From NCBI GenBank assembly GCA_032718475.1, contig JAUCBJ010008798.1:62001-126000 (forward strand): a DNA stretch of 64,000 nucleotides, given 5' to 3'. Made by a program: the position numbers and the translations under genes. The notes beneath the pieces were generated by a model, which was given only the letters and a program-made list of their open reading frames with translations, did not search any database and had not been told where the DNA came from. The stretch comes from Nemertoderma westbladi (lineage: Eukaryota > Animalia > Xenacoelomorpha). Within the stretch, counting starts at the first letter, position 1, and every line of letters begins with the position of its first letter. Positions 2,933 through 56,859 of this stretch are shown here, piece after piece.

Positions 2933-4099
2933 ATGAGTGTCTCAGACAAAGAGGCACTAGAGGACAGCTATGAGACGGCGGCTGGACCGGCGACTGACGA
3001 TAGCGTAAATATTACTGTTGACGACAATGCCGACTATGACGACGCAGCGAGCGAGGCTGACGTAAGTGAACAGGAGGACGAGACAGTGACTAGTGAGGAA
3101 GAACAACAACCTCAAGTAATAGTATTAGGATCCCCTACCACTACTGTAAGGAAGGACCGCACAGCAGCCCGGACAGAGGTGAGTGATAGGGAGGGTAGTG
3201 TAGCAGAAGCGAGGGCCCGGAGCCCGGTTTCCAGACCTGTGGGTATGGTAAGTGCCGTGGTCCCAGCGGCTGTAAGGAGTACCCGTAGTTCCCGAAATAA
3301 TCCTTCAAGTCCACCAAGTGTAAGTCAGGTAAGCGAGAGAGAACTTGACATCGCGATAAAAAAGAAACTTCGCGCGCACGCCGGACATATAACCCGGACG
3401 GCGGACAAGGTAAGGACGATGTTAGCAGACTCAGCGAACATTGGAAGGGAAGGGTTAGTAGAGATTAGAAGAGGATACAACTCAGCGTTATTCAAACAGA
3501 CGGAGGAGCTTGCAGTCCTAGCAAAGAAGGCAGTAGAGTCTCAGTCGAGCGACATGGCGACGAGGATTTACAACAGGGTTTTAGCAGCCTTGTTAGAGCA
3601 CCGCGAGTTATCGGAGCGATTCCGACGAGTTAGGACGGAGAACTGGTTGCTATGGGCATCACAAGCGCAGGCGACTCAGGTGAGTGACGCAGAGTCGAGA
3701 GATTTAGTGGAGCGAGAAGAGACGCAAGATAAGGAGGAGCGCCGTTATCAGAGGGAAGTTACTAGCTGGCTGATGCAGAGTGGAGTGGTGGTACCGGGCC
3801 AGGTGCTACCGACGACGGAGAACATCCAACAGAGAACGTTAACTCCACCCGATGACGCATCTAGAGACAGTGGCGATTACCAGGTTAGTCACGCGCGAGG
3901 GAAAGTTATATGTGCTAGATCCCTTGTTTCTCACAACTCGGCGGAAGAGAGAAGACGCCGACTAGACGAACAACAGGCGGAAGTTTTGCGTGCATCGGAA
4001 GCACGGAAGGAAGCCGAGCGGGAAAGGGAGCGAACACGTAAGTTAGACGCAAAGTTGCGAGAGTTGGAAGATAAAGGTAAGTGTAAAAGCCTTTGCTGA
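2933..4099 (+). pseudogene. Truncated Gag-like ORF (acidic N-terminus plus coiled coil), probably from a second BEL-type element, cut by the LTR at 4082
   Basis: 388-aa ORF whose last codons are read from the LTR. Its low-complexity and coiled-coil layout resembles the N-terminus of the Gag at 7579, and the upstream ATACCGGTAT motif is shared with the BEL leader. No diagnostic domain remains. Confidence 0.5.
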
Positions 4100-5318
4100 A
4101 TTGCCCCGTTATTTTTATTATTTTTTACATTAAAATACTCTGTAGTTGATTTAATAGGTGTAAGAGACCGTATTATTGCTGTATCGGTGTTTTTTAGAGG
4201 ATCTAAGAGCTATTTCCTCCGTATGTGTACTGTGGAAGGCATAGTTGATGATTCTATGGCAATTCCGTGACGCAAAAGGTGATAGCTACTCTTGAACAGT
4301 AGTTACTATGACGACGGTTAACAGCTGATATTCATACGTGTTGATTTTCTTTGTTCTACGGCGTCTCTCAGTTCAGTCAGCCAATCAGAGCATTTTTATG
4401 GCTCTTGTACAGAAATTTCCTAGAAATCACGCAATGCTTTATGTGCAGTGTTGACATTCTGTCCTGAGCCAGGTGAGAGCGGCTTGGGAATATTTTGTGC
4501 TTTTCTGTTTTAGCCTAACACTAGTAGGCTTAATTATAAGGACTATATCCGTTATCAACACTTAATATCTCACTGGCCACTGGTTAACTGGCCCATACTC
4601 AATCAACGCAACATACCTAATCTAATATACCTGTGCATACTTTTATATTGTTATACTGCTATTTACTGTCGGTTCTTCATAATATGGTTGATGAATTATT
4701 ATATTTGGAATAACGATAAATAACCCCGAAACCCAATATTCTTGATATACCGAAGGTAAGAGAGAAAGGTTACATATAACGATTGTGACTTATGTTAAAG
4801 TGGTTTGAAGTGAATCTAATGTTATCTGATAGACCCTACATGAGTCGGTCTGTGTTCCTTTTATATGTGACTAAAATCAGTGAAGATCGGCAGATTAGTG
4901 TGCAGTATTGTGCAGCATTGTGTATGAGTGAGACTGATAACGAAGCATTTCCTAAAGAATGCGCCATATATGTGAATTGTAACTAAGCCATATCGTTGTG
5001 AGTAGTTTAAGTCATAACTCTGTTTTTATAGATAGAGCGCCACGTCCTAAAGGAACTGTTAATATTCCCCGAAGGTGAATAATATTGTCAGAGATTATAT
5101 AATACTGTCAGTCGAATAATACATTAGGCTTACCTAGCAATAAGATTAAGCCGTCGAACCCAATCTCCCGGGTATATCCAGCGGGTGAATGATCGCGCAC
5201 AGATTGGTTTCGACTAGTGTAGTGAATCAAATACTTGTCAGAGGCTAAAAGTGACTTATTATCTAGAAGACATCCTAATTTGGCGGGTTAAACTGCCAAA
5301 GGTCTGAAAGCGCGAACA
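4082..5318 (+). repeat. BEL 5' LTR (1237 bp)
   Basis: TGTAAAAGCC...GCGCGAACA; direct repeat of 22034-23252. Confidence 0.95.
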
Positions 5319-5329
5319 ATAACGGATAT
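5319..5329 (+). promoter_or_regulatory. Candidate self-priming primer-binding site ATAACGGATAT
   Basis: Abuts the LTR end, lacks the TGG of tRNA PBSs, and is the exact reverse complement of LTR bases 4545-4555 (ATATCCGTTAT). Confidence 0.65.
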
Positions 5330-6250: not shown

Positions 6251-7578
6251 TATTTATTATTCAGAGTTTATGCGATTATTCGCAACATTCATTCCCCAAG
6301 TTTGTTCCTACAATAATTGTGTTTGTTATACATACCGCTATAGTTAAATTAACCCCGGTACTACACGGGCTGCTTGGCGTAGGTAAAGACTGGTGATTTT
6401 GTGCACCGGTCACTCCAGCAGATGCCGTGGTTCTTTTAGCTGTTCAAGTATATTTAACTACTGATTATATGTTGTACAAGTACTCGTACCTAATTTAGGG
6501 TTTAGTGTACAGTGCTTTCCGAAAGTAATTAGTGTAGACATTATATTTGTGTTGTAAAGTGGTTGATAGGCACGTTCGATTAGCTCTATTAACTTCTAGG
6601 TAGGAACACTCCGTGATACATAACGTAGTACCTATAGCGATACGGCTATAGGTCGTCAGGCGGTGGTATTTTCCTATCTGGACAACGCAGTGTATTTACT
6701 ACTACGTATTATTTTCAAATACCGCAGTACCCTGTCCGTTGTAATAACCAGAATTCTAACCCTTTGTTAGGCTGGTTTGTAGACTTCTTGTAAAATTACC
6801 CTGAAAATTCGTATTTTGTGTTTTTTGTAAATTTTTGTGTTTATTTAGAGATTGTAATCTCACCCGAATTGTACGTAATTTGTAGTATTAAGTAACTTAG
6901 GTAAATTAGCATTATTTGTTTTAGTGTCCTATAAGTAACACTTCACTGAAAGCGCACCGCTTTGTGTAGTGATTACTCCCCAGAAATAATAACATTTATT
7001 TCAAACATTGACAAAACCCATTAAAACGGGTATATATATATTATAAATCAAATCTAACGATTTATAAATAGTAGGCCTACCATACAACCATTAGGTCTCA
7101 ATATCAGTTGGATTACTGCTCAAATAACGGTAATAAAGTAAGTAAAGTAACCAAGTAACCCTAAAATTCAGAAATTCAATTATTTAAAATAATTGATATA
7201 CCGGTATTTACGATAGGCCTATTATCTTTATTTCTATAAATTTAGGCTGAAATTATACCGGTACTTGTAATTAATTCTAGTCCAGAATTATATATACTAC
7301 AAACTGTAAGCTGTATACCGGTATTCCCGATAGGCCTATTATATATTTATATATATTTGTGCTAAAATTATACCGGTATTCTGTGATAAACCTAGTCTGT
7401 AATAATACTTATATAGTTATATATACTATAAGCATACCGGTATTCTAATATATTATATATATCACGCTACACTGAGTAGCAGTATAGGTAATTAATTACT
7501 AGGCTAGCAGTTAATACTGAGTTACTAGACTTGCTCAGACTGTAATACAGCAGTAGACATTCAACTGTACACATAAAC

Positions 7579-10500
7579 ATGTCTGATACTAAGCAGAACC
7601 TGTCAGACAGTTTATTAGATGTAACTATCTGCGACTCAGATAGAGGCGTAGAACCGTCTAGTCGTAAGTTCAGTTCACCTCCCACTGTGAGGAAGGTCAT
7701 CCCTCCTGTAGTAATAACAGAACCTAGGCTGGTCCAACATCGTAGGTCTATCATAGGCACTCGAGCTCAGGTCAAGCGGGACCAAGAAGCAGCGGAACAG
7801 CAACAACCCGTGAGCCAAGAAATTATTTCTCAGCGGCCCGACAGCTCCAGTAGTGAAGATACTGTAGAACTGACACCCGAGCGCGGAGCAAGGATGACGG
7901 ATGCGGTTTATTCGGATCCCCTTCTCATCCTTCCTGCAGCCGTACTCACTAGGTTATTGATCGCTGTGGAAGAACACCAGATCGATTGGGCGAGAAGTCA
8001 ACGCTCAACTAAAGATAGTTATGCGGGATACACAAGGGAAGAACTGAAGTCCATGGTCGAGTCGCAATGGAACTTCCCCGGACCCGGACTCCCGTTTGAT
8101 TTATCAGAAGCTGCCTGGGAAGACATACACCGGATGGGAGTAGCCAAGGAAACCATCGATCCAGCTGTGTGGAAGAGGTCCGCAGCCGGATACGCACAGG
8201 GATTCTTCAGCTCTATGGAGCGAGTAGAAAAACAACTGTTACAACAACCTCAAGGACCTCAAGAGCAGGGACAACTGCTTTATCAAGTTAGAGAAAGAAT
8301 TCTGCGAATCAGGCTAATATTATCAGCCTTTGAAGAGGCTTCTAAAAGAAGACAAGACACGTCGTTGCAAGTTGCCGTAAAGACTTGGTTTCAACGGGTG
8401 AGTCGCCAGGTTCAAGGAACAGCTCAGTGGAAAGCTCAGCTGGAGGAGCGCTCAACCCATGGAGAATCAACAGACGCTACTTTTTCCCAAGTGGAAAGTG
8501 AAGCGACGGCAGAGAAACCGCATAAGAGAGATGCCATTGACATCTATCTGTCAGACTATCAACGTTTTTTAGGTGATGACGAGTTGAGGAGAAGGTTAGA
8601 TGGACTTAGCCCTAATAGCGAAGGAACTCAGCGTGTGTTGGATGCCATCGATGTGGAAATGAGGGCTGCGAATCAGGCTAAATTTGATGAACAACTCCGC
8701 CTGACACGAGTCCAAGAAGAACAAGTAAAGAAAAAACGTATAGAAGACAGAAAGAAAGCAGCAGTGGTAGCTGCAGAAGCAGAAAGAAAAGCGGCAGCGG
8801 CAGAGGCAGCGGCAGAGGCAAAAGCGGCCGAAGCTGCAAAGCAAAAGCGGCCAGCTGCAGCGGCAGCGGCAGAAGCAAAGGTGGCAGAAGCAGAACGGAG
8901 AGCGACTGAAGAAACCACCCAATTAGAATTGGAAAACATTCAGGAGAATCAAGACTGCATAAATAAACAGTTAACAGCTAGTAATATGCAGATGATGAAT
9001 CGATCTACTCCCAAAAGACAGGGATATACATCATCTGAGGAAGGCGATACCACCGATACTGAAGGCAAAGGAAATAGATCTCGTCTAAGCAGACGTAAAA
9101 GAACATTCCACCGTCAGAAATTGCCTGATTTGCCTCCAGCTGTTAGAAGGCAACTAAATAACACCAACTTAGGTAGTACAGAGCCCACAGACCAAATAAT
9201 TAAAATAGAAAGACTCCCTACTATAGTAGATGAGCCTGAAATAATTAGGCCTGTTCTTGAAATCACCCCTTCGGTGATAGACACACCTGTGCTCCCTGAA
9301 GCTACCTCTAAATTCCCTCTGCATAGCACTAAGCTACCTGTGCCCAGTAGAACTGCCCAGGAGACAGTTCAGGTCCTGGACCCCGAGCGAAATATTCATG
9401 ATTTGTCGCCCGTTGTCCCTCGTCCGCCCGCTACAACGTTGGCGACTCCCGCTTCGGCGGTCGAATGGGTGGACGAGAGACGGCGGGGGATGGATCTCCT
9501 GCTCGGGCAGATGCAGGAGACTGTTCAGCAATTCAAGGGCACAGTAAGGGAAAGTAGGCTAGAGTTGCAAGAAGTGCAGCAAAGTATCGCGCTAGAACGC
9601 GATAAATTAGTAAATACTCAAAGGGGTATACCACCACCCTCGGTAACAATGTGTCAACCTGTTAGGTCTGAAGTATCTCATGCGCAAGGTGTGGAGCCTA
9701 CACGCATATATACTGCTAGCGAAGTAGAAACTCCTATAGTGAACCCTATTAAGGGTAATTATAGACCTGTTGATAATGACATTCCCTATAGACCTGATCA
9801 TAATCCGAGAAATTTATATACCGATAACTCGATATTAAATAACACGATGGCCCAAGAAAGTTTTACGCGTCAAATGGCTAGAACCGAAGCCCGGCAAGCG
9901 GTGAAGGTGGGAGAGATCGTCAAGTTCAATGGAGATGAGATGAAATGGTTACCTTTTAATGAATATTACAAAGATAACATACAGAACTCTGTACTATCTA
10001 ATGGAGAGAAACTTAGATTCCTCATCGAGTGCTTGGAAGGATCTCCCAAGTTAATGGCGTTAAAGTTTATTGGACATCCAGACGGATTAAGACAAGTTTG
10101 GGATACACTAAACATCAGGTATGGTAATAGGAATAACATAGCTGGGTATTTGTATGCAAAGTTGGTAGCGCCCCGAAAGTTTATTAGCAACGGGATTATA
10201 GAGTTTTCCGATGAAATTCAGGAGATCTGCAGACAATTAGATTGGCTAGGTAAGTCTCATGAGTATCAGAGTGCTATGGTTATTAGAGCAGTGGCTTCTA
10301 CTTTACCGAAGGGTGGAGTAGGTACACGCTGGGACAAAAAGGTGTTATACATGATGGAACAACAACAACGAGACCCTACCATGACTGATCTCATGACATT
10401 CTTGGATGGCGAAGTGAAATTACAGCTCATAAAACAGTCCAGAGAGAAGACATCGGAAAACAAGGTAAGTGAGAAACCCGTCTCCAGAAGAAAGATAACA

Positions 10501-12178
10501 CCAGTGTGTTATACCGACGACGGCGAAAGCCAAGCTTCCCAAGAGGAGGACAGCGGGAAAGACACTGAAAGATCTTATTATGTCAATAAAACACCTAACG
10601 AACAGGGAAGTAAATTTAAGTCTCGATCCCATGACAAGAGAGAACAGGTAAGAAAAACTCCTCCTACGTCTCCCAAGAGAATTCAGGTAAGAAAGCCCGA
10701 AGAAAGAACGAGAGTGCACACTGTCACCCAAAATAAGGTAAGTAACATCAAACCGAAATGTGCGCTATGTGACGGGACCCACCGTTTGAATATGTGTGAT
10801 GAATTCCTGAAGAAATCATTAACGGAGAGACGAGAAGTCATGTGGGATAAGCGGTTATGTTATAATTGCCTCAGACAAGGACACCAACGGCGAACCTGTT
10901 ACTCTGACATAAGGTGTGCAAAGTGTGGTGCGAAACATCATATCTTGTTGCACGCTGAATTCGAGCGAAATAGTCCGAATCAGGTAAGTGATTCCGAACT
11001 ACATGTCCAATTCAGTGATGTGAACGACACTGATCAATCTGAGATGGAAGGATTCTATACGGACGAGTTCTCCGACGAAAACGAATCCTGTTACATGATA
11101 AATACCGCAGTGTATCGAGCACTCACATATGAAAAAGATACGGACAGCGACCTCACTCTAACTACTTCTGATCGACAACCATCGTGGAAAGCACCAACTT
11201 CCGATGTAGGAATCCGAGAATTTCCTGTAGTCCAGTTACGGGTCCATGGACCTCAGAAGAGCTATATAGTGAACGCCCTCCTGGACTCCGGTAGTACAGG
11301 AACATTCATCGACAAAGAGCTAGCCGAAGACATATTTGCTGGACAACCCAAGTTCCGAACTAAGCTAAACATGTCCGGCATTATGCAAGTTTGGAAATCT
11401 ACATTAACAGCGGATTATTATGTAGGCGCGTTGTCCACCCCCCAGGACGAACTAGGAGAACATAGCATAAGGTCAGTGAAAATGGTGGCTATAAAGAACT
11501 TCGCTACTACTCAAGCAGACCTTTATAATTGGGACGAGGATGAGAGCATCCAACATCTTAACATACCTCGATTCCAGACTGATTATCCTGGAGTGCAAAT
11601 ACTCATCGGCCAAAACGCGCATGAGGCGCTCGAGACATTGGAGAAACGGCCTGCTCAACCGCAGCCACTACATGAACGCCCTCCTGGACTCCGGTAGTAC
11701 AGGAACATTAATCGACAAAGAGCTAGCCGAAGACATATTTGCTGGACAACCCAAGTTCCGAACTAAGCTAAACATGTCCGGCATTATGCAAGTTTGGAAA
11801 TCTACATTAACAGCGGATTATTATGTAGGCGCGTTGTCCACCCCCCAGGACGAACTAGGAGAACATAGCATAAGGTCAGTGAAAATGGTGGCTATAAAGA
11901 ACTTCGCTACTACTCAAGCAGACCTTTATAATTGGGACGAGGATGAGAGCATCCAACATCTTAAGATACCTCGATTCCAGACTGATTATCCTGGAGTGCA
12001 AATACTCATCGGCCAAAACGCGCATGAGGCGCTGGAGACATTAGAGAAACGGCCTGCTCAACCGCAGCCACTACAGACCTATGCGGTAAGAACTAGAGTA
12101 GGTTGGTACTTTACTGGCCCTTCCCGTAGAACACTCAGAGAAAGACTACCGCAAGAGCAGCGTCTGCCAGGTGAGTGA
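7579..12178 (+). CDS. gag: BEL Gag-aspartic protease, frameshifted by a 403-bp tandem duplication of the protease region
   Basis: Pao-type Gag core (KFNGDEMKW...EKLRFLIECLEG); knuckles CALCDGTHRLNMC, CYNCLRQGHQRRTC and CAKCGAKHHILLH; protease ALLDSGS. ORFs 7579-11697 and 11540-12178 become one frame when one duplicate is removed. Confidence 0.9.
11270..12075 (+). repeat. Tandem duplication, 2 x 403 bp, covering the protease core
   Basis: Copies 11270-11672 and 11673-12075, with about four substitutions seen between them. Confidence 0.95.
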
Positions 12179-12237
12179 ATGGGAAGATGATACTAGTGAG
12201 GGAGACGATTTAACTGAGGGAACCCCATACTCCTCAG
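12171..12237 (+). other. Candidate 67-nt spliceosomal intron between protease and RT
   Basis: CAG|GTGAGT donor, TTTAAC branch-like motif at 12209-12214, CCCCATACTCCTCAG acceptor. Removal deletes the TGA at 12176-12178 and fuses Gag-PR in frame with Pol. Confidence 0.6.
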
Positions 12238-15200
12238 ATAACGACGACGTTCACCAGCTTTTTGATGAGGAGAATACCATCGATCTCCTTAAGGAAAACG
12301 AGGCTTGGCAAAACCAAGTGAACTTATGTCAACTTCTTTATCCATCTGAACGAGAAGCTTATAACGACGAGCTAAATGACGTCATTGAGCGTTGTAATGC
12401 CAAGACTCGAGATGAACATGCCGTACGATTCTTTACGCAAGAGGCGGTAGAGCCCAATTCCTACGATAAAGCCTTATCGGTGGAAGAGGAAAGGGCCAAG
12501 CAGATCCAAGAGACAACTACACGTTTCCTCAAAGATCAAGGTAGGTATGAAGTCGGTCTACCTTTCCGCAAGAGAGAACCGAAGTTCATCAATAACAGAC
12601 CCTTGGCGGAAAAAAGAATCGCGCAACTCCATCGACGCCTTACGGCTAATTCTTCAGCTAAAGAAATGTATCAAACACAGCTGGAGAAATTTATTAGTAA
12701 GGGATACGCGGAGAGAGTACCGGAAGAAACACCTGTGACTGAAAGAACGTATTACTTAACTCACCATTACGTTCCTAAACCCGGTAAACCACATGAAGTG
12801 AGAGTAGTGTTTGATGGCTCCGCTCTTTACATGGGTCAATCCCTTAACTCTGAATTGTTACCCGGACCCAACTTACTTCAATCTTTGTTGGGAATTCTTT
12901 TAAGATTGAGACAATATTCGATTGCTTTCGCCTCCGATATAGAAGGCATGTTCTTACAAGTCAAGGTGTTAGATAGGGATCGAGATAGTCTACGATTTCT
13001 GTGGTGGCCCGAAGGAGACCTCAACCAGAAACCGGTGGAGTACTGGATGACCATCCAGGCCTTTGGGATAATCTCAAGCCCTTCCAACGCCTGTTCGGTA
13101 GTGCGTACCACTGCAGAGGACAACCGAGAGGCATTCTCTAAGGAAGTGATCGACAACATCAAGCGAGACATATACATGGACGATAATCTGAAGTCCCTCC
13201 CATCAGTTGAGGAAGCCATTGAGGTCGCTAAAGGAACGGTAGAGTGCTTAAAAAGAGGTGGGTTTCGATTAACGAAATTCACCAGCAACTCCCGTGAGTT
13301 TCTGGAGTCGATCCCTGCGGAAGATCGAGGGGCGAAAGATCTAGATTTGATCAAAGATGATCTGCCAGAAACCAAGACACTCGGCTTGAAATGGGACACA
13401 GAGCGAGATATCCTGTTTTTCCAGCTAAAACAGCGAGATAATCCAGTTCGAACCAAACGGATTTGCTTAAGTATACTGAGCACTTATTTCGATCCATTGG
13501 GATTTATTAGCCCAGTTATATTGATTGCTCGTAGTTTGGTACAACAAATGTGGCTTGAAAACCACTCATGGGACGATCCACTTAAGGGAGAATTATTAAA
13601 GAAGTGGATGAAATGGGAAGATTCTCTGCCGGCTATCGAGGATTTTATAATTTCCCGTTCATATTTTGGTCATGTTCTCCCTACGTATTCCTATCAACTC
13701 CATGTGTTTGGAGACGCCAGCGATATGGGAATAGGTATAGTAGCCTATCTAAGAGTGGAAACTCCGGATGGAATCAAAGTCGCCTTGGTTACTTCTAAGG
13801 CATTAATCAACAACAAGTTGAAAGTTCCTCGAGCGGAGTTAAAAGCGGCTCTATACGCTACAGCCATCGGCCGGAATGTAACAGAACAGATTGACTATCC
13901 ATTAGAGAAAACTGTCTATTGGACCGACGCTTTACTCGTGTTAGAGTATATAACCAATGAAGTCTGTCAGTTCAGCGTCTTCGTTACCAACAGAGTAGCC
14001 ATCATACTTAGTCGCACGACGATGGACCAATGGAGACATTGCCCCGGAACGATTAATCCAGCAGACATCGCTTCCCGAGGAGCGACTCCAAAGGAATTGG
14101 TAAATACTCCCGAATGGTTAGGTGGACCCGACTTTCTCTACAGAGAAGAAGAAGAATGGCCTCCCCATCTCACAACAGCAGAGATCAGACAGGCCAAGGG
14201 AGCGGAGAAAGTTAAACCCAAAACTCGAGCGAGTAAATCGAAGTTGTTTAAACCTGCGGTTGATCTATCTGTATTATTTACTTCCGGAGAGGATGCTTTG
14301 GATCAGAAACCCACCGCCACGACTAAAGAAGTCTTGGAAATCCGTGACAAGGATTGGAAATCTGGAATACCAGATATCGCGCAAGGACTCTCACCCCTCT
14401 TGCAGAGAGCGATACGTCACTACAGTTCCTGGAATCGGCTCTGTAAAGCCGTCACCTATTTAAAACGATGTTTTCATCATCGTTACTCCGGGACAAAGAC
14501 CAATAGTGATGATGCTCCATCAACATCTGCACGAGTCCATGTTGTTAAAGATCTTCCCAAATACAAGATATCCGACAGGTTTCTAAAGGAGAAGATCAGT
14601 TACCAGGAGCATGATGAAACCAACAAACAGATGCTGAGACTCCTACAATGCTATGAGGATCCCGATAAGTATTTCCTGTTGTTAAGAAATCCGCAGATGC
14701 GCTTAAGGGATCGCTTCTCTAGTACCATGATAGATGGGTTAATACGTGTTGGAGGCAGGCTTACCAACGCCCCATTATCCTTTGACACTAAGTTTCCCAT
14801 ACTCATTAGAAATCTTGACATACAAATCAAGATGATTGTAGATGTTCATAGCAAACTGTATCATGCTGGAAGAGAACGAGTTCTGAGCGAAATTCGAACT
14901 CGCTACTATTTTTATAAACCCCGTAGGGCTCTGAACCAAGTCCTTAGGAACTGCATACCCTGTAGGAAAGCATTCAGTAGGCCTTTGACACAGCGAGAGG
15001 CAGAATTACCTAGGGAAAGAGTAAGCTTCTATGAACCACCCTTTACTAATACCGGTGTGGATTTATTTGGCCCTATTGAAGTATATCGTGCCCGGACTAT
15101 AGTCAAGAGATGGTGTGTCATCTTCGTTTGTATGACTTGTAGAGCTATCCATCTCGATATGGTAAACGATCTATCCACCAACAGCTTCGTGTTGAGTTTA

Positions 15201-16058
15201 CGACGACAGATCGCTCGCTTCGGAACCAGTAACACGATGAGATCGGATAAGGGAACGAACTTCATTGGCGCCAACAACGAAATTCAAGCTTACGTAAAGG
15301 ACTGGAACAAAAGACAGGTGGACGATCAGCTAAAGATAACAGCGTCTAGCTGGACCTTCAACGCCGCCGACGCCCCTTGGTGGGGAGGAAGTTGGGAGAG
15401 ATTGATTAGGAGCGTGAAGACTGCGTTCCACTTTATTGTACCTTGTCGCGCTTATCTCACCGACGAACTATTGCGGACGTTAATGGAGGAAATCGCCGCC
15501 TATCTCAACGAAAGACCGCTTATGCCAGTCTCTTCAAGTCCTGATTCCCTGGAAGCGCTAACACCCGCGCACTTTCTACTGAAGAAACCCGTAGCCATGC
15601 TCCCACGATCGGAGATCACAGACGGAGACGAGTACTGCCGTCGAACCTGGCAACTTATGCAGTTGCTATCCCGTCGTTTCGCTGACCATTTCGAGAAACA
15701 TTACCTGCCCACTCTACAACTTCGAACTAAGTGGTTTGCGCAGCAAGAAAACGTCAGCGCTGGAGACATGGTGCTTATTGTGGACCCCGATCTCCCACGT
15801 AAGCGATGGCAAACAGGACGTATCATCGAGACTCATATCTCGAGCGATGGTTTGGTGCGATCAGTAGAACTCGTCGTCATGCGGCGTAACTTTAAGAAAC
15901 CAGGGATAGTCTTTGAGACTCAACAGCTCAACCGCCCAGTGGGTCGTTTATGTTTACTGGAAAGAGACAGAGAGCTCTCCGGAAACTATGGAAGGCAAGA
16001 AACTCTTCCCACGACCACTTCCCTAATCCAACCCACATCTAGGGACTCCCCAACTTAA
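12171..16058 (+). CDS. pol: BEL Pol: reverse transcriptase, RNase H, integrase
   Basis: RT RVVFDGS and YMDD; RNase H LHVFGDAS and YWTDA; integrase HHCC (HSKLYH...CIPC), GVDLFGP, SDKGTNF and GGSWERLI. The GTG start is probably not a real initiator. Confidence 0.95.
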   Translation: MSEWEDDTSEGDDLTEGTPYSSDNDDVHQLFDEENTIDLLKENEAWQNQVNLCQLLYPSEREAYNDELNDVIERCNAKTRDEHAVRFFTQEAVEPNSYDKALSVEEERAKQIQETTTRFLKDQGRYEVGLPFRKREPKFINNRPLAEKRIAQLHRRLTANSSAKEMYQTQLEKFISKGYAERVPEETPVTERTYYLTHHYVPKPGKPHEVRVVFDGSALYMGQSLNSELLPGPNLLQSLLGILLRLRQYSIAFASDIEGMFLQVKVLDRDRDSLRFLWWPEGDLNQKPVEYWMTIQAFGIISSPSNACSVVRTTAEDNREAFSKEVIDNIKRDIYMDDNLKSLPSVEEAIEVAKGTVECLKRGGFRLTKFTSNSREFLESIPAEDRGAKDLDLIKDDLPETKTLGLKWDTERDILFFQLKQRDNPVRTKRICLSILSTYFDPLGFISPVILIARSLVQQMWLENHSWDDPLKGELLKKWMKWEDSLPAIEDFIISRSYFGHVLPTYSYQLHVFGDASDMGIGIVAYLRVETPDGIKVALVTSKALINNKLKVPRAELKAALYATAIGRNVTEQIDYPLEKTVYWTDALLVLEYITNEVCQFSVFVTNRVAIILSRTTMDQWRHCPGTINPADIASRGATPKELVNTPEWLGGPDFLYREEEEWPPHLTTAEIRQAKGAEKVKPKTRASKSKLFKPAVDLSVLFTSGEDALDQKPTATTKEVLEIRDKDWKSGIPDIAQGLSPLLQRAIRHYSSWNRLCKAVTYLKRCFHHRYSGTKTNSDDAPSTSARVHVVKDLPKYKISDRFLKEKISYQEHDETNKQMLRLLQCYEDPDKYFLLLRNPQMRLRDRFSSTMIDGLIRVGGRLTNAPLSFDTKFPILIRNLDIQIKMIVDVHSKLYHAGRERVLSEIRTRYYFYKPRRALNQVLRNCIPCRKAFSRPLTQREAELPRERVSFYEPPFTNTGVDLFGPIEVYRARTIVKRWCVIFVCMTCRAIHLDMVNDLSTNSFVLSLRRQIARFGTSNTMRSDKGTNFIGANNEIQAYVKDWNKRQVDDQLKITASSWTFNAADAPWWGGSWERLIRSVKTAFHFIVPCRAYLTDELLRTLMEEIAAYLNERPLMPVSSSPDSLEALTPAHFLLKKPVAMLPRSEITDGDEYCRRTWQLMQLLSRRFADHFEKHYLPTLQLRTKWFAQQENVSAGDMVLIVDPDLPRKRWQTGRIIETHISSDGLVRSVELVVMRRNFKKPGIVFETQQLNRPVGRLCLLERDRELSGNYGRQETLPTTTSLIQPTSRDSPT

Positions 16059-17708
16059 TATCGTTCGGAGTGGGCGTGTGACTCTATTATTTTATATTAT
16101 TTTATTATTTTTATATTTATGTATGTATTACTATGTAATTTTATTATAATCGTTTTATTTAATTTAGTAGAATATTATTTAGCGATTATTTAGTAGAATA
16201 GTGCAATATATTCGTGTTTATTGCGTACGTAATTACTTATATTATATTTAGTGTGACGGTGAGAAACAAGTGTTTTTCTCTTTCCTTACTGTCCGTATTA
16301 TATTATAAATACGTAACTACAGTAAGATGAAATGTCCGTACTTATTAAAGTACAATAAAGCCACTACTATATTCAAGTATTATTGGTAGGCAGAGTATTA
16401 GGAATGCAAAGTTCAGATCCTCGTGTCTCGGCTAAACCAAGCTCTGGGTAGACCTTGGAAACGACTTGCCTCTTCACACTGACATTGCTTCGTGCGATAT
16501 TGCTCTCATACCGTATATTAAATAATACATATAGTAGCGTGATGTCCCTTTAACAGTAGCGTATAACGCAAAATAAATCTGTTAAACCCTTTGACCATCT
16601 GTAATTCTAGTCGATTAAGATATCGCGGCACCCACCGATATACTTGAAAGACAAATTCTAGAATCAGTGGTTAACGTCCCCAGACAAGTTCTGGAATAAA
16701 TCGGTGCCCATCTCAAATATTAATTATTTAATATTTGCAAATCCAATAAATCAAAATCTGTAAATTCAGATCCTTCAACAATTCTAGTCAATTAAGATAT
16801 CGTAACATTTACCGATATTCTTAAAAGGACAATTTTCATAGAATTAAGGATCTTGTGTCCCCAGACATGTTCTAGAATCAAAATATGTCCATTTAATTAT
16901 CAAATAATAAAATTTCAGGGAATAAATTTAAATTCATGCCTTTTAATGAATTTAATAAATTGCCATTTTTACGCAATTTATAACATTCCCAAAATTCCAT
17001 TAATTAATAGATCAAGGGAGCGGAGATTTATCTTATTATGCGTATGAGTGTGCGAAAGTCTCCCAAACATAGTCAATAGCCGATAAAATTCATAAAGTCA
17101 TGTATCAAACAGGACATTGACTATTAAAGAATTACTATTAAATAACATCCCAGATCTGTATGCATGGGAATTACCCTAATTCTACCGCTAGCTTTACATA
17201 ATGTCACCATAGCAACAACCACGCTAGAATTAGAATTGAGTTAAAAGAACAATAGAAAGCTTGTCCCATTGAATAGCATAGGGAATAAATAGCGCACTGC
17301 TAGTATCCAAGGATACATAATAATACAGTGACATTCTGGAAGGCATTGACTAACGGACAAATGGCCCGAATGTGCGTAGTTGTGACCAGTTGTGTGGTAT
17401 TTGTGAGTTTATAGGTGAATGTTACTGCTAAAGTGTGTTTACAGTAGCTAGTCGCAATCGTGAAAGTAACCTAACTCTCCAAGGAAAACCTGAAGTACAT
17501 CTAAGCCTTTGGGACGGACAGTGGAGTGACTTGTGCCGGTTATCGTTGTCGTTGTACGGCTACGTCGTTGGCGAAAGTACAGCGACAGCGGTACATCGGC
17601 GCTGAGAATCTCACACTGTCCGGGGGCAAGGGAGAAGTAGGCAGCGACGCCCGCTCGCCTAATAAATATATAAACTCATTATAATATTGGTGAACTCGTA
17701 TAGCAGAT

Positions 17709-20700
17709 ATGACTGAATTAATAGAAGATGATCTTGGTATCAGGGAGAGATATACTCTACCTTTACAAGCGTTTGTCGATAGCTTGATACGCGGCGACGC
17801 TGATCCAACTACTACGGAGGACGATGGTCGTTATATCGAACCGCCAATGTCCCAGGAGCAACTTACGCGTGAATTGGACTATAGAAAATTCACTGCTCGC
17901 TATACGCATCGTAATGGTACGTATATGGACTTCCTGACTACTGGTCATCCTATTGATTTACACGACACCGACGATGTCGACACCGAAAGGGAAATGGTTT
18001 TATTTAAATATCATACCCAGCGGAGTCGAAACGACAAATCGAGAATAGAACACGAGAACTCTATTCGAAATAAACTCGAAAGAGAAGACGTTGAAGAACC
18101 TGATAAACGTAGCGGCTTCAACGAATATCTAGAATTCCTAAGAGAGACCTATCTCAATGTTGCTAGTCAACAAAACCTCGAAACTCGATATCCTCAAGGT
18201 ATACATCCAGATCCTATGATGGAACTCAAACGGCTCTATTTTACGATGATGTATCTTACCGCCGATCGACCACTACCTGTCGTTCCAGATAGCTTCGAAC
18301 AGATGGAGGAATATTGTAAAACTGGAGAGCGATCACCCGCGTTTCCCCTTCAAGACGTGCGTCTTTGGTATTACTGTGACGAATGCCCTAGACCTAACCA
18401 GCAAATCGAAAGGCATAAACATCCGCGGAGACGTTGCGCTAAACACAGTTTTACGCGATATACTTATGGGAGTTTCGAGCGAAACCTTTTCGACGTATCA
18501 CCTACGGTCGCGCGCCTTAAACGATCATTGAATAAACCCATGATCAGAGTTCCGGAATACTCGGTCAGACCTCCTCATTCCCAAGTGATACCTCAAACTC
18601 TCGATCCTAATAGTATTACGGATCCTCCCGAGCTGTACTCACTGTTCAAAGATCTAGTGTTACCTGAACAGTTGATTGGTGGCACTCCGGTAGTGGGTTC
18701 GTTAGATATTCGCCAACCTTACCTCGCTGGACTAGGACGCGGTCATCTAATATCACCGTTTAACCCCTACAACCGTCCTGGCCTCCCTCCGATCCAACCT
18801 GTTACAGAAGTCGAAGAGAGCGTGATACGAAATGCATTGGACGCTATTCGGCAGAAAATCGGAAAAGGAACTTACGATTGCTTGGAGAAACGTAAATTGC
18901 AACAACAAGTCCAAGCGGTGAAAGAACTAGCTTTACCCCAGTTCGATAGAGAAATACAAAATCTAGAGGAGGACATCGAACGTGGACGAACCTACTCCTT
19001 ACAGGAATTCCTGGACGAGCGCTTGCAACAACAAGCGGAGGAAAATCAGCTCGAGGAGAGACATATAGAGCTGACTGAGAGGGAAGAAGCTGCTTTAGCC
19101 CAACCAGAAACTCAAATTCTCGTGACGGATCTCTATTCCAAAACGATCCTCCACCCCTCGATGGTTCCTCATTTTAAAGACAAGCTCTTTGCTACGGTAC
19201 AGCCTCAACCGGTTAATACCGATCTCAGATCTCAAGAACTCATTGCTGACGCTCCTATGATACAACGTCCACCCATCGCGGCTGCTCGTGTCGATGGTGT
19301 ACTTGTTGAGCCTCCGGACAATAGAGCGGATCTTGTCCGTCGCATGGTACACGATGTTAACATACGCGCTAGACCTTTGCCGGACTCATTTTATGGAATT
19401 AAGGATCATCCTTATTACGTCAATTTAAAGCAATATTACATGGTAAAACCGGAAGATCCTACGCATAGTCTGAGGTTTCTACCATTAATCAATCCTCTCG
19501 ACCTTGTCGAACTCGAACAACTACAAAAACATCTAGATCAGCTAGTTAAACTAAACTCATTTCGAAAACCGTATAATATTTCCAGAATAGAGAAAGAAAT
19601 ATTACCTCCGTACAATCTTGATGGATTCATTAAAACTCGATTAGTGCACTGGAATCTTGACGTGTTATTCGAGGAAGAAAGAATAAAACGATATGGAGAT
19701 GTGGAAACCTATACTACACAATGCTTAAAGTATAGAGATTTACCCAATGCTAGCGAATGCGCTACTTTGTGGCATCCAGTGGGAATGACTCTCGAAAACG
19801 CCACTAAAGAATGGAACGAGACTCTTAACGTTATCGAGATGTATGGCGTTGTTACTTATGACAACGAAGGTAGCGTTCTGGTGGGAGAACTAGGAACTAC
19901 GCGAATGATACATATACGAGGACTCGCTGGTTCTACCCACGTATTCACTCGAGCGTGTTCCGACGTGATTGATTATTCTTTTGAAACCCTTACGGAGACA
20001 CAAAAGAAACTTCGACATGGACAATTCGAGCTCGCGCAGCGTTACGTCACCGACACCGAGCGCAAACCGGCCATGGGTATCGATGGATCAATGTTACCCC
20101 AACCTGTGCTCGAAATGTTGTTTAACGAAAGAATCCTAAAAATCGGCTCAGCTGTTTATGGAGATCTCCAAAACGACTTCCGGAATATGGAAAACATTCC
20201 ATACCCTTTCGTTGATACTCAGCTGATTGCTCCTTGGGCCGAAGGCCGAGGTTTCTTTCGCACTATGTATGCCAATACACCCAGCGACATTACTAAGGTA
20301 CAACGGACATCCATCGGACATCTTGCCTTTCAAGAATATGGATGGAATTTCAAAGTTGGAAATCCTACCAATTACCAGCAAGTATATGGAGATCATTACT
20401 CTCGTTTATATTTTGATGGACCATTAACTGCGCCTGGTGCCGTATATAGCTTTATGAGTGTTCCACTTCGCCCTTCCTTAGCTATATACATGATCTTTGA
20501 AAACGCAGCACTTGCCGGTTGGCTAGCCGATGTGTGCAGTCGTACCATACGCGCTCACCCATTAATACTTGGAACTAAACTCGCCAAGTTAGACGAACAC
20601 AATAAGTTCATACGTTTCGAATGTTTCCGGCGCTTTCTGACTCCGTTCCGTAACGTCGATAGTCAGTTCAAGGACCGCGCGCTGACCAAACTCAGTCTGA

Positions 20701-21737
20701 GAGACTCAGCTGCGGAGAAACTGAGTAGCGCTGGATTTGCCGTTTTTCAAGACGTTTGTATACAGAACTTACATTCATCTGTTATACAAAGACCCCGAAT
20801 ACCTACAGGTTATTCTGTCGTGGAAATACAGACAGTGGATCCACTTACTGAGACAGACGCACCCACTTCGTCTATACATCTGGAAGATGAACCAGTATGC
20901 TTGGAATCAGAAGCGATTCAGCCTACAGCTTCCCGGAGCAGTGACAATGATTATGTCATAGAGTGGTATCAAGGTCCACAACGTCTCACAGCGTACGATT
21001 ATAGACACGCCAACTACGTTTCTCGAAAACGTTGTCGATTATGCGCATCGAGAGACCACTTCACCCCTCTAGACTCGAGCGTACCTTGTTCCTATTTCCT
21101 TGAACAACCGATGATGGAAATATATTGTGCTTATTGCCGGCTTAATAACTCTCATATTTTTGCCGTCTGCCCACAATTTATGACTCAATGTCATTACTGT
21201 CAACTTAAAGGACATGAAAGTTACAATTGTCCCTTTAATCGCGATTTAGAGAGTGTAGACGAGATGATCACCCTGCGATACATCCGAGCTTGGGAAGCGA
21301 ACGCGGATTTACATTGCGAATCCCGACATCGCTATTACCCTGGACGAGCTTACGAGGGAGTTTACGCGTTCCATCCTTATCTATTCGCGTCAATTGAACA
21401 GAAAACACGCGTACCAAGTTACGAGTTAATGAAGCGTGTTGGTGAGTGTATTTCCACCAAGTTTGTCAGAAAATACCTTAGAAACGTTAACCCTAATGAT
21501 ATAACCACATATCACCTGATCAATTTTATCCGTCAGGACCCTGAGTATGGCGACATCTTTGTGAACTCGCATCCTGAACTACAGGAAGTATCTCGGCGAC
21601 CATATGAATATCGAACCCGAGAACGCGAGCTGGAGAGAACCATTAAACCGAGAAAGTTCCTCACCACTCACGGTCCACCCACCGCTAGTGTCCAGACGAC
21701 CCGTCAAGGACCCGTAGGAGCTGCTGTCCTGTTCTAA
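17709..21737 (+). CDS. BEL ORF3, 1342 aa: putative DEDDy (RNase D/WRN/MUT-7-like) 3'-5' exonuclease with C-terminal CCHC zinc knuckles
   Basis: Intact ORF inside the LTRs. ExoI-like VVTYDNEG (~19848-19871); ExoII-like LPQPVLEMLFNERILKIGSAVYGD, then FVDTQLIA and SIGHLA...GWNFK; ExoIII-like PLRPSLAIYMIFE (~20462-20501). Knuckles CRLCASRDH, CAYCRLNNSHIFAVC and CHYCQLKGHESYNC. Confidence 0.7.
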   Translation: MTELIEDDLGIRERYTLPLQAFVDSLIRGDADPTTTEDDGRYIEPPMSQEQLTRELDYRKFTARYTHRNGTYMDFLTTGHPIDLHDTDDVDTEREMVLFKYHTQRSRNDKSRIEHENSIRNKLEREDVEEPDKRSGFNEYLEFLRETYLNVASQQNLETRYPQGIHPDPMMELKRLYFTMMYLTADRPLPVVPDSFEQMEEYCKTGERSPAFPLQDVRLWYYCDECPRPNQQIERHKHPRRRCAKHSFTRYTYGSFERNLFDVSPTVARLKRSLNKPMIRVPEYSVRPPHSQVIPQTLDPNSITDPPELYSLFKDLVLPEQLIGGTPVVGSLDIRQPYLAGLGRGHLISPFNPYNRPGLPPIQPVTEVEESVIRNALDAIRQKIGKGTYDCLEKRKLQQQVQAVKELALPQFDREIQNLEEDIERGRTYSLQEFLDERLQQQAEENQLEERHIELTEREEAALAQPETQILVTDLYSKTILHPSMVPHFKDKLFATVQPQPVNTDLRSQELIADAPMIQRPPIAAARVDGVLVEPPDNRADLVRRMVHDVNIRARPLPDSFYGIKDHPYYVNLKQYYMVKPEDPTHSLRFLPLINPLDLVELEQLQKHLDQLVKLNSFRKPYNISRIEKEILPPYNLDGFIKTRLVHWNLDVLFEEERIKRYGDVETYTTQCLKYRDLPNASECATLWHPVGMTLENATKEWNETLNVIEMYGVVTYDNEGSVLVGELGTTRMIHIRGLAGSTHVFTRACSDVIDYSFETLTETQKKLRHGQFELAQRYVTDTERKPAMGIDGSMLPQPVLEMLFNERILKIGSAVYGDLQNDFRNMENIPYPFVDTQLIAPWAEGRGFFRTMYANTPSDITKVQRTSIGHLAFQEYGWNFKVGNPTNYQQVYGDHYSRLYFDGPLTAPGAVYSFMSVPLRPSLAIYMIFENAALAGWLADVCSRTIRAHPLILGTKLAKLDEHNKFIRFECFRRFLTPFRNVDSQFKDRALTKLSLRDSAAEKLSSAGFAVFQDVCIQNLHSSVIQRPRIPTGYSVVEIQTVDPLTETDAPTSSIHLEDEPVCLESEAIQPTASRSSDNDYVIEWYQGPQRLTAYDYRHANYVSRKRCRLCASRDHFTPLDSSVPCSYFLEQPMMEIYCAYCRLNNSHIFAVCPQFMTQCHYCQLKGHESYNCPFNRDLESVDEMITLRYIRAWEANADLHCESRHRYYPGRAYEGVYAFHPYLFASIEQKTRVPSYELMKRVGECISTKFVRKYLRNVNPNDITTYHLINFIRQDPEYGDIFVNSHPELQEVSRRPYEYRTRERELERTIKPRKFLTTHGPPTASVQTTRQGPVGAAVLF

Positions 21738-22033
21738 AGGCCGTTAGACCTCGCTCCACTGAGGTTGATATTAATCAACCAGGTACTTCGACCGGCGGGT
21801 ATACCGATCGTAACCCTACACCTTCTGATGCAATTGTATTGCACCCTTCGCCTAGGAGCTACAGCCCTCCTCGTAAAGTGGCTCGCCCCAAAGAGAAAAG
21901 GACTCTTGCTAGCCTCAAGAAACTGCGTAAACGCCGTCCGCGTAAGAAAGACTAACTGTTTAGAGTATCTTTAGGTTTTAGAAACTGTGATTTTTATATT
22001 TTATAGACTGAAAATCCCATTTTCTGGGAGCGG

Positions 22034-23252
22034 TGTAAAAGCCTTTGCTGAATTGCCCCGTTATTTTTATTATTTTTACATTAAAATACTCTGTAGTTGA
22101 TTTAATAGGTGTAAGAGACCGTATTATTGCTGTATCGGTGTTTTTTGGAGGATCTAAGAGCTATTTCCTCCGTATGTGTACTGTGGAAGGCATAGTTGAT
22201 GATTCTATGGCAATTCCGTGACGCAAAAGGTGATAGCTACTCTTGAACAGTAGTTACTATGACGACGGTTAACAGCTGATATTCATACGTGTTGATTTTC
22301 TTTGTTCTACGGCGTCTCTCAGTTCAGTCAGCCAATCAGAGCATTTTTATGGCTCTTGTACAGAAATTTCCTAGAAATCACGCAATGCTTTATGTGCAGT
22401 GTTTACATTCTGTCCTGAGCCAGGAGAGAGCGGCTTGGGAATATTTTGTGCTTTTCTGTTTTAGCCTAACACTAGTAGGCTTAATTATAAGGACATATAT
22501 CCGTTATCAAACAAACAACTGCAAACTGGACTCACTCACTGACTTAATATCTCACTGGTTATCTCACTGCATTTATCTTACTTAACATTACTGCTTTGCT
22601 GTCGGTTAATCATTATATTTGTTGATGAATTATTATATTTGGAATAACGATAAATAACCCCGAAACCCAATATTCTTGATATACAGAAGGTAAGAGAGAC
22701 AGGTTACATATAACGATTGTGACTTATGTTAAAGTGGTTTGAAGTGAACCTAATGTTATTTGATAGACCCTACATGAGTCGGTCTGTGTTCTTTTTATAT
22801 GTGACTAAAATCAGTGAAGATCGGCAGATTAGTGTGCAGTATTGTGCAGCATTGTGTATGAGTGAGACTGATAACGAAGCATTTCCTAAAGAATGCGCCA
22901 TATATGTGAATTATAACTAAGCCATATCGTTGTGAGTAGTTTAAGTCATAACTCTGTTTTTATAGATAGAGCGCCACATCCTAAAGGAACTGTTAATATT
23001 CCCCGAAGGTGAATAATATTGTCAGAGATTATATAATACTGTCAGTCGAATAATACATTAGGCTTACCTAGCAATAAGATTAAGCCGTCGAACCCAATCT
23101 CCCGGGTATATCCAGCGGGTGAATGATCGCGCACAGATTGGTTTCGACTAGTGTAGTGAATCAAATACTTGTCATAGGCTAAAAGTGACTTATTATCTAG
23201 AAGACATCCTAATTTGGCGGGTTAAACTGCCAAAGGTCTGAAAGCGTGAACA
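22034..23252 (+). repeat. BEL 3' LTR (1219 bp)
   Basis: TGTAAAAGCC...GCGTGAACA. Differs from the 5' LTR by roughly a dozen point changes plus a poorly aligning block at ~22510-22620. Confidence 0.95.
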
Positions 23253-24096: not shown

Positions 24097-24955
24097 GTTG
24101 TCTGTTTATTATCGTCCGGTAAGTTTGTCTGTTCATTACCGTACGGTAAGATTGTCTGACGTCTGTTTATTATCTTCAGGTATGATTGTCGGTTTATTAT
24201 CGTCAAGTAAGTTTGTCTCTTTATTATCTAACAGTAAGTTTGTCTGTTTATTATCGTCCGGTGAGTTTGTCTGTTTATTATCGCCCGGTAAGTTTGTATC
24301 TTTATTATCTAACAGTATGGTTGTCTGTTTATTATCCAGAAATATAGTATGTTTATTGTTGTCCGGTAAGTTTGTCTGTTTAATATCGTCCGGTGAGTTT
24401 GTCTGTTTAATATCGTCCGGTAAGATTGTCTGTTTATTATCGTCCGGTGAGTTAGTCTGTTTATTGCTGTCCGGTAAGTTTGTCTGTTTATTATCGCCCG
24501 GTAAGTTTGTCTGTTTATTATCGCCCGGTAAGTTAGTCTGTTTATTATCGCCCGGTAAGTTAGTCTGTTTATTATCGCCCGGTAAGTTTGTATCTTTATT
24601 ATCTAACAGTATGGTTGTCTGTTTGTTATCCAGAAATATAGTCTGCTTATTGTTGTCCGGTAAGATTGTCTGTTTATTATCGTCCTGTGAGTTAGTCTGT
24701 TTACTACCGTCCGGTAAGTTAGTCTGTTTATTATCGCCCGGTAAGTTTGTATCTTTATTATCTAACAGTATGGTTGTCTGTTTATTATCCAGAAATATAG
24801 TCTGTTTATTGTTGTCCGGTAAGATTGTCTGTTTATTATCGTCCTGTAAGTTTGTCTGTTTATTATCCAGAATTATAGTCTGTTTATTGTAGTCCGGTAA
24901 GATTGTCTGTTTATTATCATCCAGTAAGATTGGCTGTTTATTATCTTTCAGTAAT
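24097..24955 (-). repeat. Coding minisatellite, 27-bp unit (DDNKQTNLP-like), about 30 copies
   Basis: Plus-strand unit TCCGGTAAGTTTGTCTGTTTATTATCG with variants; continues slightly past the SIRT6 stop. Confidence 0.95.
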
Positions 24956-26040
24956 GGTGTTTGTTTTTTGCATAAAGATATTTCTGTGTGCTGTTCACCG
25001 AATTTGAGTGTTTTAGGGAATCCCTTCGACGAATCTCCCATCGCATTTAGACCGACACTATTCGAAACGCAACTATTGTCCTCAGATTTTCTCTTCCTAT
25101 TTATATTCGTAGTTTTCTTTCTTCGCTTTTCGTTCTCCGTCAAACACAGCTGTTTCCACCTCGCTGGCAGTCTATCCGGAATTTTAGAACGCAGCACGGT
25201 TTTAGGACCGGTGTATTCCGGTACAACCAGACCCAGACGCGCCATCAACCCGGACATAACGTAATCGACCCAGTAATTAATGATAACATCGGCGTGTTTA
25301 TCTACTCGCGTCGGCTGCAGATTAACTACCACCAACTTTCCACCCGATTTAGTTGTGAATATAGGTAGATTACCAGCGGGCACTATCTGCAGCGTGGTAC
25401 CCAGACAGATAGAAAGTTCAGCGACCTTACTATGTCGCTCAGACGCAATTAAAGCCTTCTCCGGTAGGTTGGCTTCCCAATCCAATATGCTGTCTCGCAT
25501 CCTTCCTCGACAGATACCCCTATCGCATCTACGATTGGCTTCGCATGGGTTACCGGTAACTTTCTGTCCCACAGTACACACGGCTGACTCGAGTATTACC
25601 TCTGTGTTGCACGTATCGCACTGCTCAATAAATATATTCCCGTGTAGATCGGCAACTCGATTCCTAGGGAAGCCTGCACGGAGATGTAAACCGTCGATGT
25701 TCTGGTTGACTAGAAATTGAGTTAACCCGGCGGATTCCAGCGCCACTAGCGACCTGTGGGTTAGTGTCGGCACGGCTTCGTTGAACGATATGCTGGTCTC
25801 CGGGGCTATTCCCTGTTTCTCGAGAGTCCAGACGCCCTTGGGGCCACGGAAGTCCGGTATTCCAGCTGCAGTGCTGATTCCGGCTCCACAATGGATTACC
25901 GTGTGGTTGCTTTCTCGAATAAACCCACAAACTACATCGAGTTTACGTTCAACTTCCTCTCGAGAGTCGAAGATTTCAGGGAGCCCGCACTTCCCTTTAT
26001 TGTCGCAAAAGGAAAGCCCCGCTGCGTAGTTCACAGACAT
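24136..26040 (-). CDS. SIRT6: NAD-dependent protein deacylase sirtuin-6, single coding exon, with a repeat-expanded C-terminus
   Basis: Diagnostic N-terminus MSVNYAAGLS; GAGISTAAGIPDFRGPKGVWT; NQNIDGLH; catalytic LHGN; Zn-binding cysteines; basic NLS-like KRRKK...RKRK. Confidence 0.95.
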   Translation of the reverse strand: MSVNYAAGLSFCDNKGKCGLPEIFDSREEVERKLDVVCGFIRESNHTVIHCGAGISTAAGIPDFRGPKGVWTLEKQGIAPETSISFNEAVPTLTHRSLVALESAGLTQFLVNQNIDGLHLRAGFPRNRVADLHGNIFIEQCDTCNTEVILESAVCTVGQKVTGNPCEANRRCDRGICRGRMRDSILDWEANLPEKALIASERHSKVAELSICLGTTLQIVPAGNLPIFTTKSGGKLVVVNLQPTRVDKHADVIINYWVDYVMSGLMARLGLVVPEYTGPKTVLRSKIPDRLPARWKQLCLTENEKRRKKTTNINRKRKSEDNSCVSNSVGLNAMGDSSKGFPKTLKFGEQHTEISLCKKQTPLLKDNKQPILLDDNKQTILPDYNKQTIILDNKQTNLQDDNKQTILPDNNKQTIFLDNKQTTILLDNKDTNLPGDNKQTNLPDGSKQTNSQDDNKQTILPDNNKQTIFLDNKQTTILLDNKDTNLPGDNKQTNLPGDNKQTNLPGDNKQTNLPGDNKQTNLPDSNKQTNSPDDNKQTILPDDIKQTNSPDDIKQTNLPDNNKHTIFLDNKQTTILLDNKDTNLPGDNKQTNSPDDNKQTNLLLDNKETNLLDDNKPTIIPEDNKQTSDNLTVR

Positions 26041-56700: not shown

Positions 56701-56859
56701 CATGCATGGTATCTGGCTGTCAGACTGTCTGGCATCCACCAGTCCAGTCTTACCACAGTCTGACAGTACCAGTTAGGAACACTGGTCACTTTCTGGCTGG
56801 AGCTCAGCCACAAATTATCCACATATGCATATTTACAGCCAGAAAGTGTCCATGCAACC

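Follow-up and report, generated by a model that had tools for sequence, protein, structure and literature searches.

In a 64-kb stretch of the genome of Nemertoderma westbladi (contig JAUCBJ010008798.1, positions 62,001 to 126,000; hereafter the window), we examined a retrotransposon with long terminal repeats (LTRs) and in particular its third open reading frame (ORF), which we call ORF3. The element is on the forward strand and spans 19,171 bp (19.2 kb) from LTR to LTR. It has a 5' LTR of 1237 bp (4082..5318) and a 3' LTR (22034..23252), both of the form TGT...ACA, and a polypurine-tract-like sequence (22022..22033) lies directly before the 3' LTR. Between the LTRs, the order is gag, protease, reverse transcriptase, RNase H, and integrase. 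The first ORF (7579..11697, 1372 aa) encodes gag and protease: it contains DUF1759 (E = 1.8e-10), Cys/His knuckles near its C terminus, and an aspartyl-protease motif. The pol frame (12102..16058) contains Peptidase_A17 (E = 5e-36), DUF5641 (E = 7e-20), Integrase_H2C2, and a weak match to RVT_1. Because of DUF1759 in the first ORF and Peptidase_A17, DUF5641, and the integrase zinc finger in pol, we place the element in the BEL/Pao class, which the first-pass annotation of this DNA had left unnamed. (In PMC3985635, PF05380 is called a Bel/Pao family.)

The analyzed copy is not pristine. The case for a clean single insertion is weakened, because the flanks (GTAAG and TCCAC) do not match as a target-site duplication and there is no TGG-type primer-binding site directly after the 5' LTR. 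These absences do not affect the class assignment. Gag, the end of the protease, and pol are in three different frames, and the protease region contains a 403-nt tandem duplication (11270..12075) whose copies are 99% identical and whose length is not a multiple of three. The two LTRs align with 1174 matches, 29 mismatches, and 50 gap columns, and 17 of the 29 mismatches are concentrated in one block of about 135 columns. Recombination between copies likely accounts for the frame breaks, the block of LTR mismatches, and the absent target-site duplication. Given the clustered differences and the missing duplication, we did not use LTR identity for dating. The 2.3-kb 5' leader (5319-7578) includes a tandem duplication of about 290 nt (5672-6258).

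ORF3 (17709..21737, forward strand) lies after pol and before the 3' LTR. As the first-pass annotation had stated, its frame of 1342 aa is open, without an internal stop, and occupies the position of env. The motifs that had been reported for its product (protein P0001) are all present and in the order given: VVTYDNEG starts at aa 714, LPQPVLEML at 796, ILKIG at 809, GDLQNDF at 818, FVDTQ at 834, SIGHLA at 868, NFK at 880, PLRPS at 919, and IYMIFEN at 926. We found no evident signal peptide or membrane anchor by hydropathy (no dedicated predictor was run), since the highest Kyte-Doolittle mean over 19 residues is 1.33 and the N terminus is acidic. On this basis we rejected an env glycoprotein, which should have a signal peptide and a transmembrane anchor.

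The protein has three parts. The N-terminal part (aa 1-674; 17709..19730) matches no family; it is proline-rich at about aa 200-370 and charged at about aa 369-465, where it looks coiled-coil-like by eye. The middle part (aa ~690-945; 19776..20543) is the putative DEDDy/RNase D-like exonuclease domain, which was identified from profile tests and site residues. The C-terminal part includes a cluster of zinc knuckles (aa 1109-1174; 21033..21230). Three knuckles had been annotated and three are present, but only two are regular CCHC knuckles (C1140-x2-C-x5-H-x4-C1154 and C1161-x2-C-x4-H-x4-C1174); the first one is irregular (C1109-x2-C-x4-H-x9-C1127). Pfam's zf-CCHC_3 matches this region below threshold (E = 0.0099). 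Separately, the N-terminal part has a Cys/His cluster, C-x2-C ... H-x-H-x4-C-x2-H, at aa 223-246 (18375-18446). It matches no family and may be an additional zinc finger.

An AT-rich spacer of 1.65 kb (16059..17708) separates pol from ORF3. It contains a TATA-like box, TATATAAA, at 17667, and there is an AG immediately upstream of the ATG of ORF3. This suggests that ORF3 may be expressed separately, either from the TATA-like site or by splicing to the AG. Directly after the stop codon of pol (16059-16085), TTCGGAGTGGGCG-TGT resembles the true 3' LTR junction, TTCTGGGAGCGG-TGT. This purine tract and TGT may be a relic of an older element end. In that case, ORF3 would have been gained on the downstream side of an earlier LTR. 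The spacer had no match to the present LTRs by blastn.

To find relatives of ORF3, we searched 1.84 billion representative proteins with aa 675-1244 as the query, using HMMER. There was one relative, P0002 (E = 1.7e-8), which is an unnamed 648-aa protein from ENA in a single-member cluster. P0002 is 30% identical to ORF3 over aa 796-942 (~150 aa), and its knuckles match as well. Both proteins have the putative exonuclease domain followed by three CCHC knuckles. P0002 lacks the long N-terminal part, and it is known as a protein alone, not as a gene of a retrotransposon. The only Pfam matches of P0002 are zf-CCHC and DNA_pol_A_exo1, both below their cut-offs (E = 0.046 and 0.2). In a sequence search of the PDB, its knuckles matched retroviral nucleocapsid at E = 1e-4, and there was a weak match to Air2 (E = 0.064). 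Other searches added nothing to this pair. A word-indexed search with aa 650-1250 of ORF3 yielded no homologue among 3219 candidates, a second one returned only P0002 itself among 1125 candidates, and a search with the alignment of the pair had no hits at E ≤ 10 among 2234 candidates. Genome contigs of viral, metagenomic, and prokaryotic origin yielded no related locus; tblastn against plasmids gave one chance match, and PHROGs gave weak matches to unknown families only.

Several profile comparisons indicate that aa ~690-945 are very probably a remote exonuclease domain of the RNase D/WRN type (DEDDy, PF01612-type), in agreement with the identity that had been proposed from motifs. When we scanned P0001 with the 18,950 models of NCBIfam, only two models matched, both for RNase D, at E = 0.017 and 0.14; with the domain alone, these matches improved (E = 0.0029 and 0.021). 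As references, we used 73 of 83 bacterial matches to PF01612, keeping those with a clean frame and both end motifs. We grouped them by length and appearance into 17 WRN-like, 17 short RNase D-like, 20 Pol I, and 19 RNase D proteins. In an unguided MAFFT alignment of P0001, P0002, and the references, motifs I, II, and DT of both proteins, as well as motif III of P0002, were in register. By direct comparison, motif III has the same spacing (PL-x6-Y-x3-acid) in P0001, in P0002, and in 19/19 of the RNase D references.

With hhalign, the pair of P0001 and P0002 matched the references with a probability of 92.8% and a local score of 47.9 over 55 columns. The local scores of 193 block shuffles averaged 15.2 +/- 3.3 and reached at most 27.8; the global score was 34.1, and none of 97 block shuffles exceeded 13.6 in that mode. 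Used as single sequences, the ORF3 domain scored 30.7 and the P0002 domain 43.9, while none of the 38 decoy segments, which came from five other ORFs of the 64-kb window, scored above 15.7. In these controls the region was picked post hoc and there was one target family, a gap that the NCBIfam scan partly fills. By group, RNase D was the best match (90%) and the WRN-like proteins reached 30%; the references are bacterial only, so this does not address the donor subfamily. Scores with HMMER profiles built from three of the groups (WRN-like, short RNase D, and Pol I) were about 0-2 bits, where there was a match at all. A hand-written regular expression for the ordered motifs was uninformative, as it matched 20/73 of the references and missed P0001. 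We also compared the region after the nuclease to the C-terminal part of the 19 RNase D proteins and did not detect an HRDC domain (hhalign probabilities of 0.14% and 0.06%), but this single-sequence test is weak.

The predicted site residues are D718 (19860), E720 (19866), D819 (20163), Y927 (20487), and E931 (20499), and the equivalents in P0002 are D62, E64, D130, Y229, and E233. The D-x-E of motif I aligns to the reference column after the hydrophobic strand, in both proteins. The motif II aspartate is in the expected K-x(7)-D context (D819) and is followed by the conserved D836-T. The canonical Y-x3-D of motif III is absent: the tyrosine and the spacing are kept, but the last acid is glutamate in ORF3 (Y927-x3-E931), as had been noticed before, and also in P0002 (Y229-x3-E233). 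Because P0002 has the same glutamate at 30% identity, it is not a lesion of the analyzed copy. The DEDE-y arrangement looks like a family trait rather than decay, and by its residues the ORF3 domain is a site variant, not a canonical DEDDy member. A literature search found no DEDDy enzyme in which this aspartate-to-glutamate replacement had been tested. Active DEDE sites are known from RNase HIII and PhoExo I, which are more distant RNase H-like nucleases (PMC4538837). We think that the ORF3 exonuclease is probably catalytically active.

Variation among copies shows that the domain is maintained. Our sample was contigs from four public runs from four studies. None of them spans the whole element, but together they cover 30/30 bins of it, many at only 85-95% identity, so the element family is multi-copy and diverse. 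Over the domain, many contigs are 80-95% alike. Individual contigs bridge the spacer and ORF3 (X4, 17429-17843), the end of ORF3 (X5, 21362-21892), and the junction of the polypurine tract and the LTR (X5, 22013-22422). Run X5 may be RNA, but we did not count it toward expression. We compared the contigs of the four runs to 19800-20540. Out of 157 variant sites, we considered the 40 with the best support. Of these 40, 34 are synonymous, while 31.7% would be expected from the same types of changes (P about 5e-12). The corresponding crude omega, 0.08, is a rough lower figure, as taking the 40 best supported sites favors common, old, silent changes. The six replacements (aa 708, 724, 767, 887, 928, and 933) do not affect any site residue, one silent change is in the D718 codon, and there were no indels at 15% in this region. 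Thus the domain is under strong purifying selection, with roughly ten-fold fewer replacements than under neutrality. Such an excess of silent changes cannot arise from neutral decay, so the decay across copies that the first-pass annotation had named as grounds for abandoning its idea is refuted. In a comparison of the whole element, the listed sites were silent in 5/5 cases in ORF3 (2 in common with the domain set), 7/7 in pol, and 13/23 in gag. Some copies lack the domain: contigs of X1, X3, and X4 contain deletion joints from 19059/19066 to 21616-21816 or from 18083 to 20934. The contig sides that support these joints are 22-87 letters long. The contigs also cover the 3' half of ORF3 at lower depth; we relied on the joints alone and did not read depth as copy number.

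What might this protein do? As far as we know, whether animal retrotransposons have active countermeasures to small-RNA silencing is an open question. We tentatively propose, at slightly less than an even chance, that ORF3 is an accessory exonuclease with knuckles that binds and degrades small or structured RNAs and thereby blunts silencing by the host's small RNAs. We are a little less sure that this is its main role. The RNase D match, together with knuckles that resemble those of nucleocapsid or Air2 (judging from P0002), would point to RNA as the substrate, and two-metal catalysis could proceed despite the change of aspartate to glutamate in motif III. ORF3 would be expressed apart from Gag-Pol. 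We regard it as an accessory gene because it is a separate ORF that lies 1.65 kb past pol and has its own TATA-like box and AG, and because the domain is deleted in some copies. It might trim or degrade silencing RNAs, so that the element would be silenced less. It might also act in trans, since there are deletion copies without the domain. Arenaviruses offer a precedent: their ExoN, a DEDD exonuclease, suppresses immunity (PMC7968707). The most specific version of this proposal is that env was replaced by a DEDE-y exonuclease with Air/nucleocapsid-type knuckles, akin to RNA-surveillance machinery, that destroys PIWI-interacting RNAs (piRNAs) or small interfering RNAs (siRNAs) in trans; this version is somewhat unlikely. 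If it is true, ORF3 would be an enzymatic anti-silencing protein from an animal retrotransposon, and its acquisition would be convergent with that in the Juno/Vesta elements and Terminons of rotifers. The domain has about 250 residues and is amenable to direct expression and assay.

Several observations weigh against this proposal or against the domain identity that underlies it. No result ties the ORF3 protein to piRNA or siRNA. Every family match is below its cut-off: P0001 scores 14-17 bits with the NCBIfam models, whose curated cut-off is 299, a Pfam scan of the whole protein gave no match, and searches of PDB sequences with P0001 or the domain gave chance matches only and no exonuclease. 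The significant local alignment from hhalign is short, spanning about 55 columns near motif II. MAFFT placed motif III of P0001 wrongly, as did the global alignment from hhalign, owing to insertions in the two proteins: motif I and the tyrosine of motif III are 209 residues apart in P0001 and 167 in P0002, versus 123-153 in the references. AlphaFold2, run with the single sequence or the two-sequence alignment, gave predicted local distance difference test (pLDDT) scores of 31.6 and 30.2, which are too low to read a fold. The fourth acid is glutamate instead of aspartate, and the selection of variants biases omega as described above. Also, conservation of the site does not prove a catalytic function, because Egalitarian keeps all five site residues and yet they are dispensable for its role in binding RNA (10.1101/2025.08.03.668247).

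That the DEDDy resemblance is a coincidence, and that ORF3 is a nucleic-acid-binding protein with another fold, would fit the sub-threshold family scores, the low-confidence structure predictions, and a family of just two sequences; but two sequences, two independent libraries, and the shuffle and decoy controls all agree on one family, and so we consider this very improbable. More plausible, but still quite unlikely, is that the domain is an RNA-binding adaptor, non-catalytic or independent of catalysis, akin to Egalitarian, Exd1, or Exuperantia. It would localize or shield the element's RNA, and the long charged N-terminal part would tie it to transport or granule proteins of the host. The DEDDy domain of Egalitarian binds stem-loop localization signals, including one from the I-factor retrotransposon, and does so independently of its site residues (10.1101/2025.08.03.668247). 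The glutamate in motif III and the large insertions around the RNA-binding face of the ORF3 domain would suit such a role as well. However, the four acids and the tyrosine are retained both across 30% identity and among copies, and DEDE sites do support activity in the more distant enzymes RNase HIII and PhoExo I (PMC4538837).

The exonuclease might instead serve the element's own replication cycle, which we judge unlikely, but less so than an adaptor. The knuckles would recruit it to packaged RNA, and it would trim the primer, the 3' end of the RNA, or mismatched ends of the cDNA, as an editing helper for the reverse transcriptase of a 19-kb element. RNase D processes the 3' ends of structured RNAs, and processing of the 3' end of element RNA is what the paper on rotifer elements proposes (PMC5408684). 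The absence of a TGG-type primer-binding site adjoining the 5' LTR is also consistent with this, as is the low omega, which suits a core-like role. Size would fit as well: the element measures 19.2 kb, Terminons that reach 40 kb also carry DEDDy ORFs (PMC6431247), and ExoN accompanies nidovirus genomes of at least 20 kb (PMC7968707). But ORF3 is outside the Pol polyprotein, the diversity of the copies does not point to high fidelity, and much of the element's length is ORF3 and the spacers themselves. To our knowledge, BEL/Pao elements generally replicate without such an exonuclease. We favor counter-silencing over replication-cycle processing and over an adaptor role, while rating it at somewhat under an even chance.

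The rest of the window contains other mobile elements and a few genes. A 388-aa ORF without a Pfam match (2933-4099, forward strand) enters the 5' LTR and ends there. It is probably a gene of another element that was cut by the BEL/Pao insertion; we found no continuation of it past the 3' LTR. Beyond the element, on the reverse strand, are an intronless sirtuin ORF (24136-26040, 634 aa, SIR2 E = 9e-22), which has an extended tail made up of 9-residue (27-nt) repeats and is presumably SIRT6-like, given its motifs, and an intronless, GC-rich gene with an ANTH/ENTH domain (49908-52064, 718 aa). A young Ty3/gypsy element (30111-37534), with 803-bp LTRs that are 99.9% identical and a single ORF of 1798 aa, is nested in an inverted-repeat element (29796-30010 and 37903-38112). 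Two further stretches, 54113-56710 and 58810-63634, are long inverted-repeat elements of a foldback-like kind that harbor tandem repeats, and there is a 37-nt tandem array at 48884-49327.

The nematode Atlas virus is an envelope-bearing BEL/Pao element. Like the element that we describe, it is retrovirus-like and has a third gene downstream of pol, but that gene encodes a viral fusion glycoprotein (PMC9094657), whereas ORF3 is enzyme-like and lacks a signal or membrane segment. Among exonucleases, ORF3 resembles the RNase D/WRN-exo/EXD/MUT-7 group (PF01612) in having motifs I, II, DT, and III in order, with the motif III spacing of RNase D; it differs in its motif III glutamate, its long insertions, the added knuckles, and the lack of a detectable HRDC domain (in a test of low sensitivity). 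We did not find a published exonuclease from a BEL/Pao element, in searches that probably matched the spelling "BEL/Pao" poorly and did not cover Repbase or subscription journals. PMC6338049, however, treats the DnaQ-like domain as well known among the accessory domains of LTR elements and cites PMC5408684, among others, for this. In particular, the Juno and Vesta LTR elements of bdelloid rotifers, as well as Athena/Terminon elements, carry an RNase D-like DEDDy ORF3 with the motif DEED, whose function is given as untested (PMC5408684). Together with PMC6431247, this bears out the first-pass annotation's mention of extra DEDDy ORFs in rotifer retroelements. As those papers describe them, the rotifer ORFs are also downstream of pol in the env position, lack a membrane anchor, and have an altered acidic tetrad. 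The hosts differ: the rotifer LTR elements belong to the Juno and Vesta lineages, while ORF3 is in a BEL/Pao element. The tetrad is DEDE-y in ORF3 and is labelled DEED in PMC5408684. Compared by description, ORF3 is also distinguished by its 1342 aa, its N-terminal extension of 670 aa, and its three C-terminal knuckles. And whereas the discussion in PMC5408684 reports no significant departure from neutrality for the enzymatic ORFs, ORF3 is under strong purifying selection. So, a DEDDy ORF3 is a known kind of gene; what is new is that it occurs in a BEL/Pao host, that it combines a DEDE-y site with this architecture, and that there is evidence of selection on it. Its presence in a further LTR superfamily suggests that retroelements have repeatedly gained and retained such genes.

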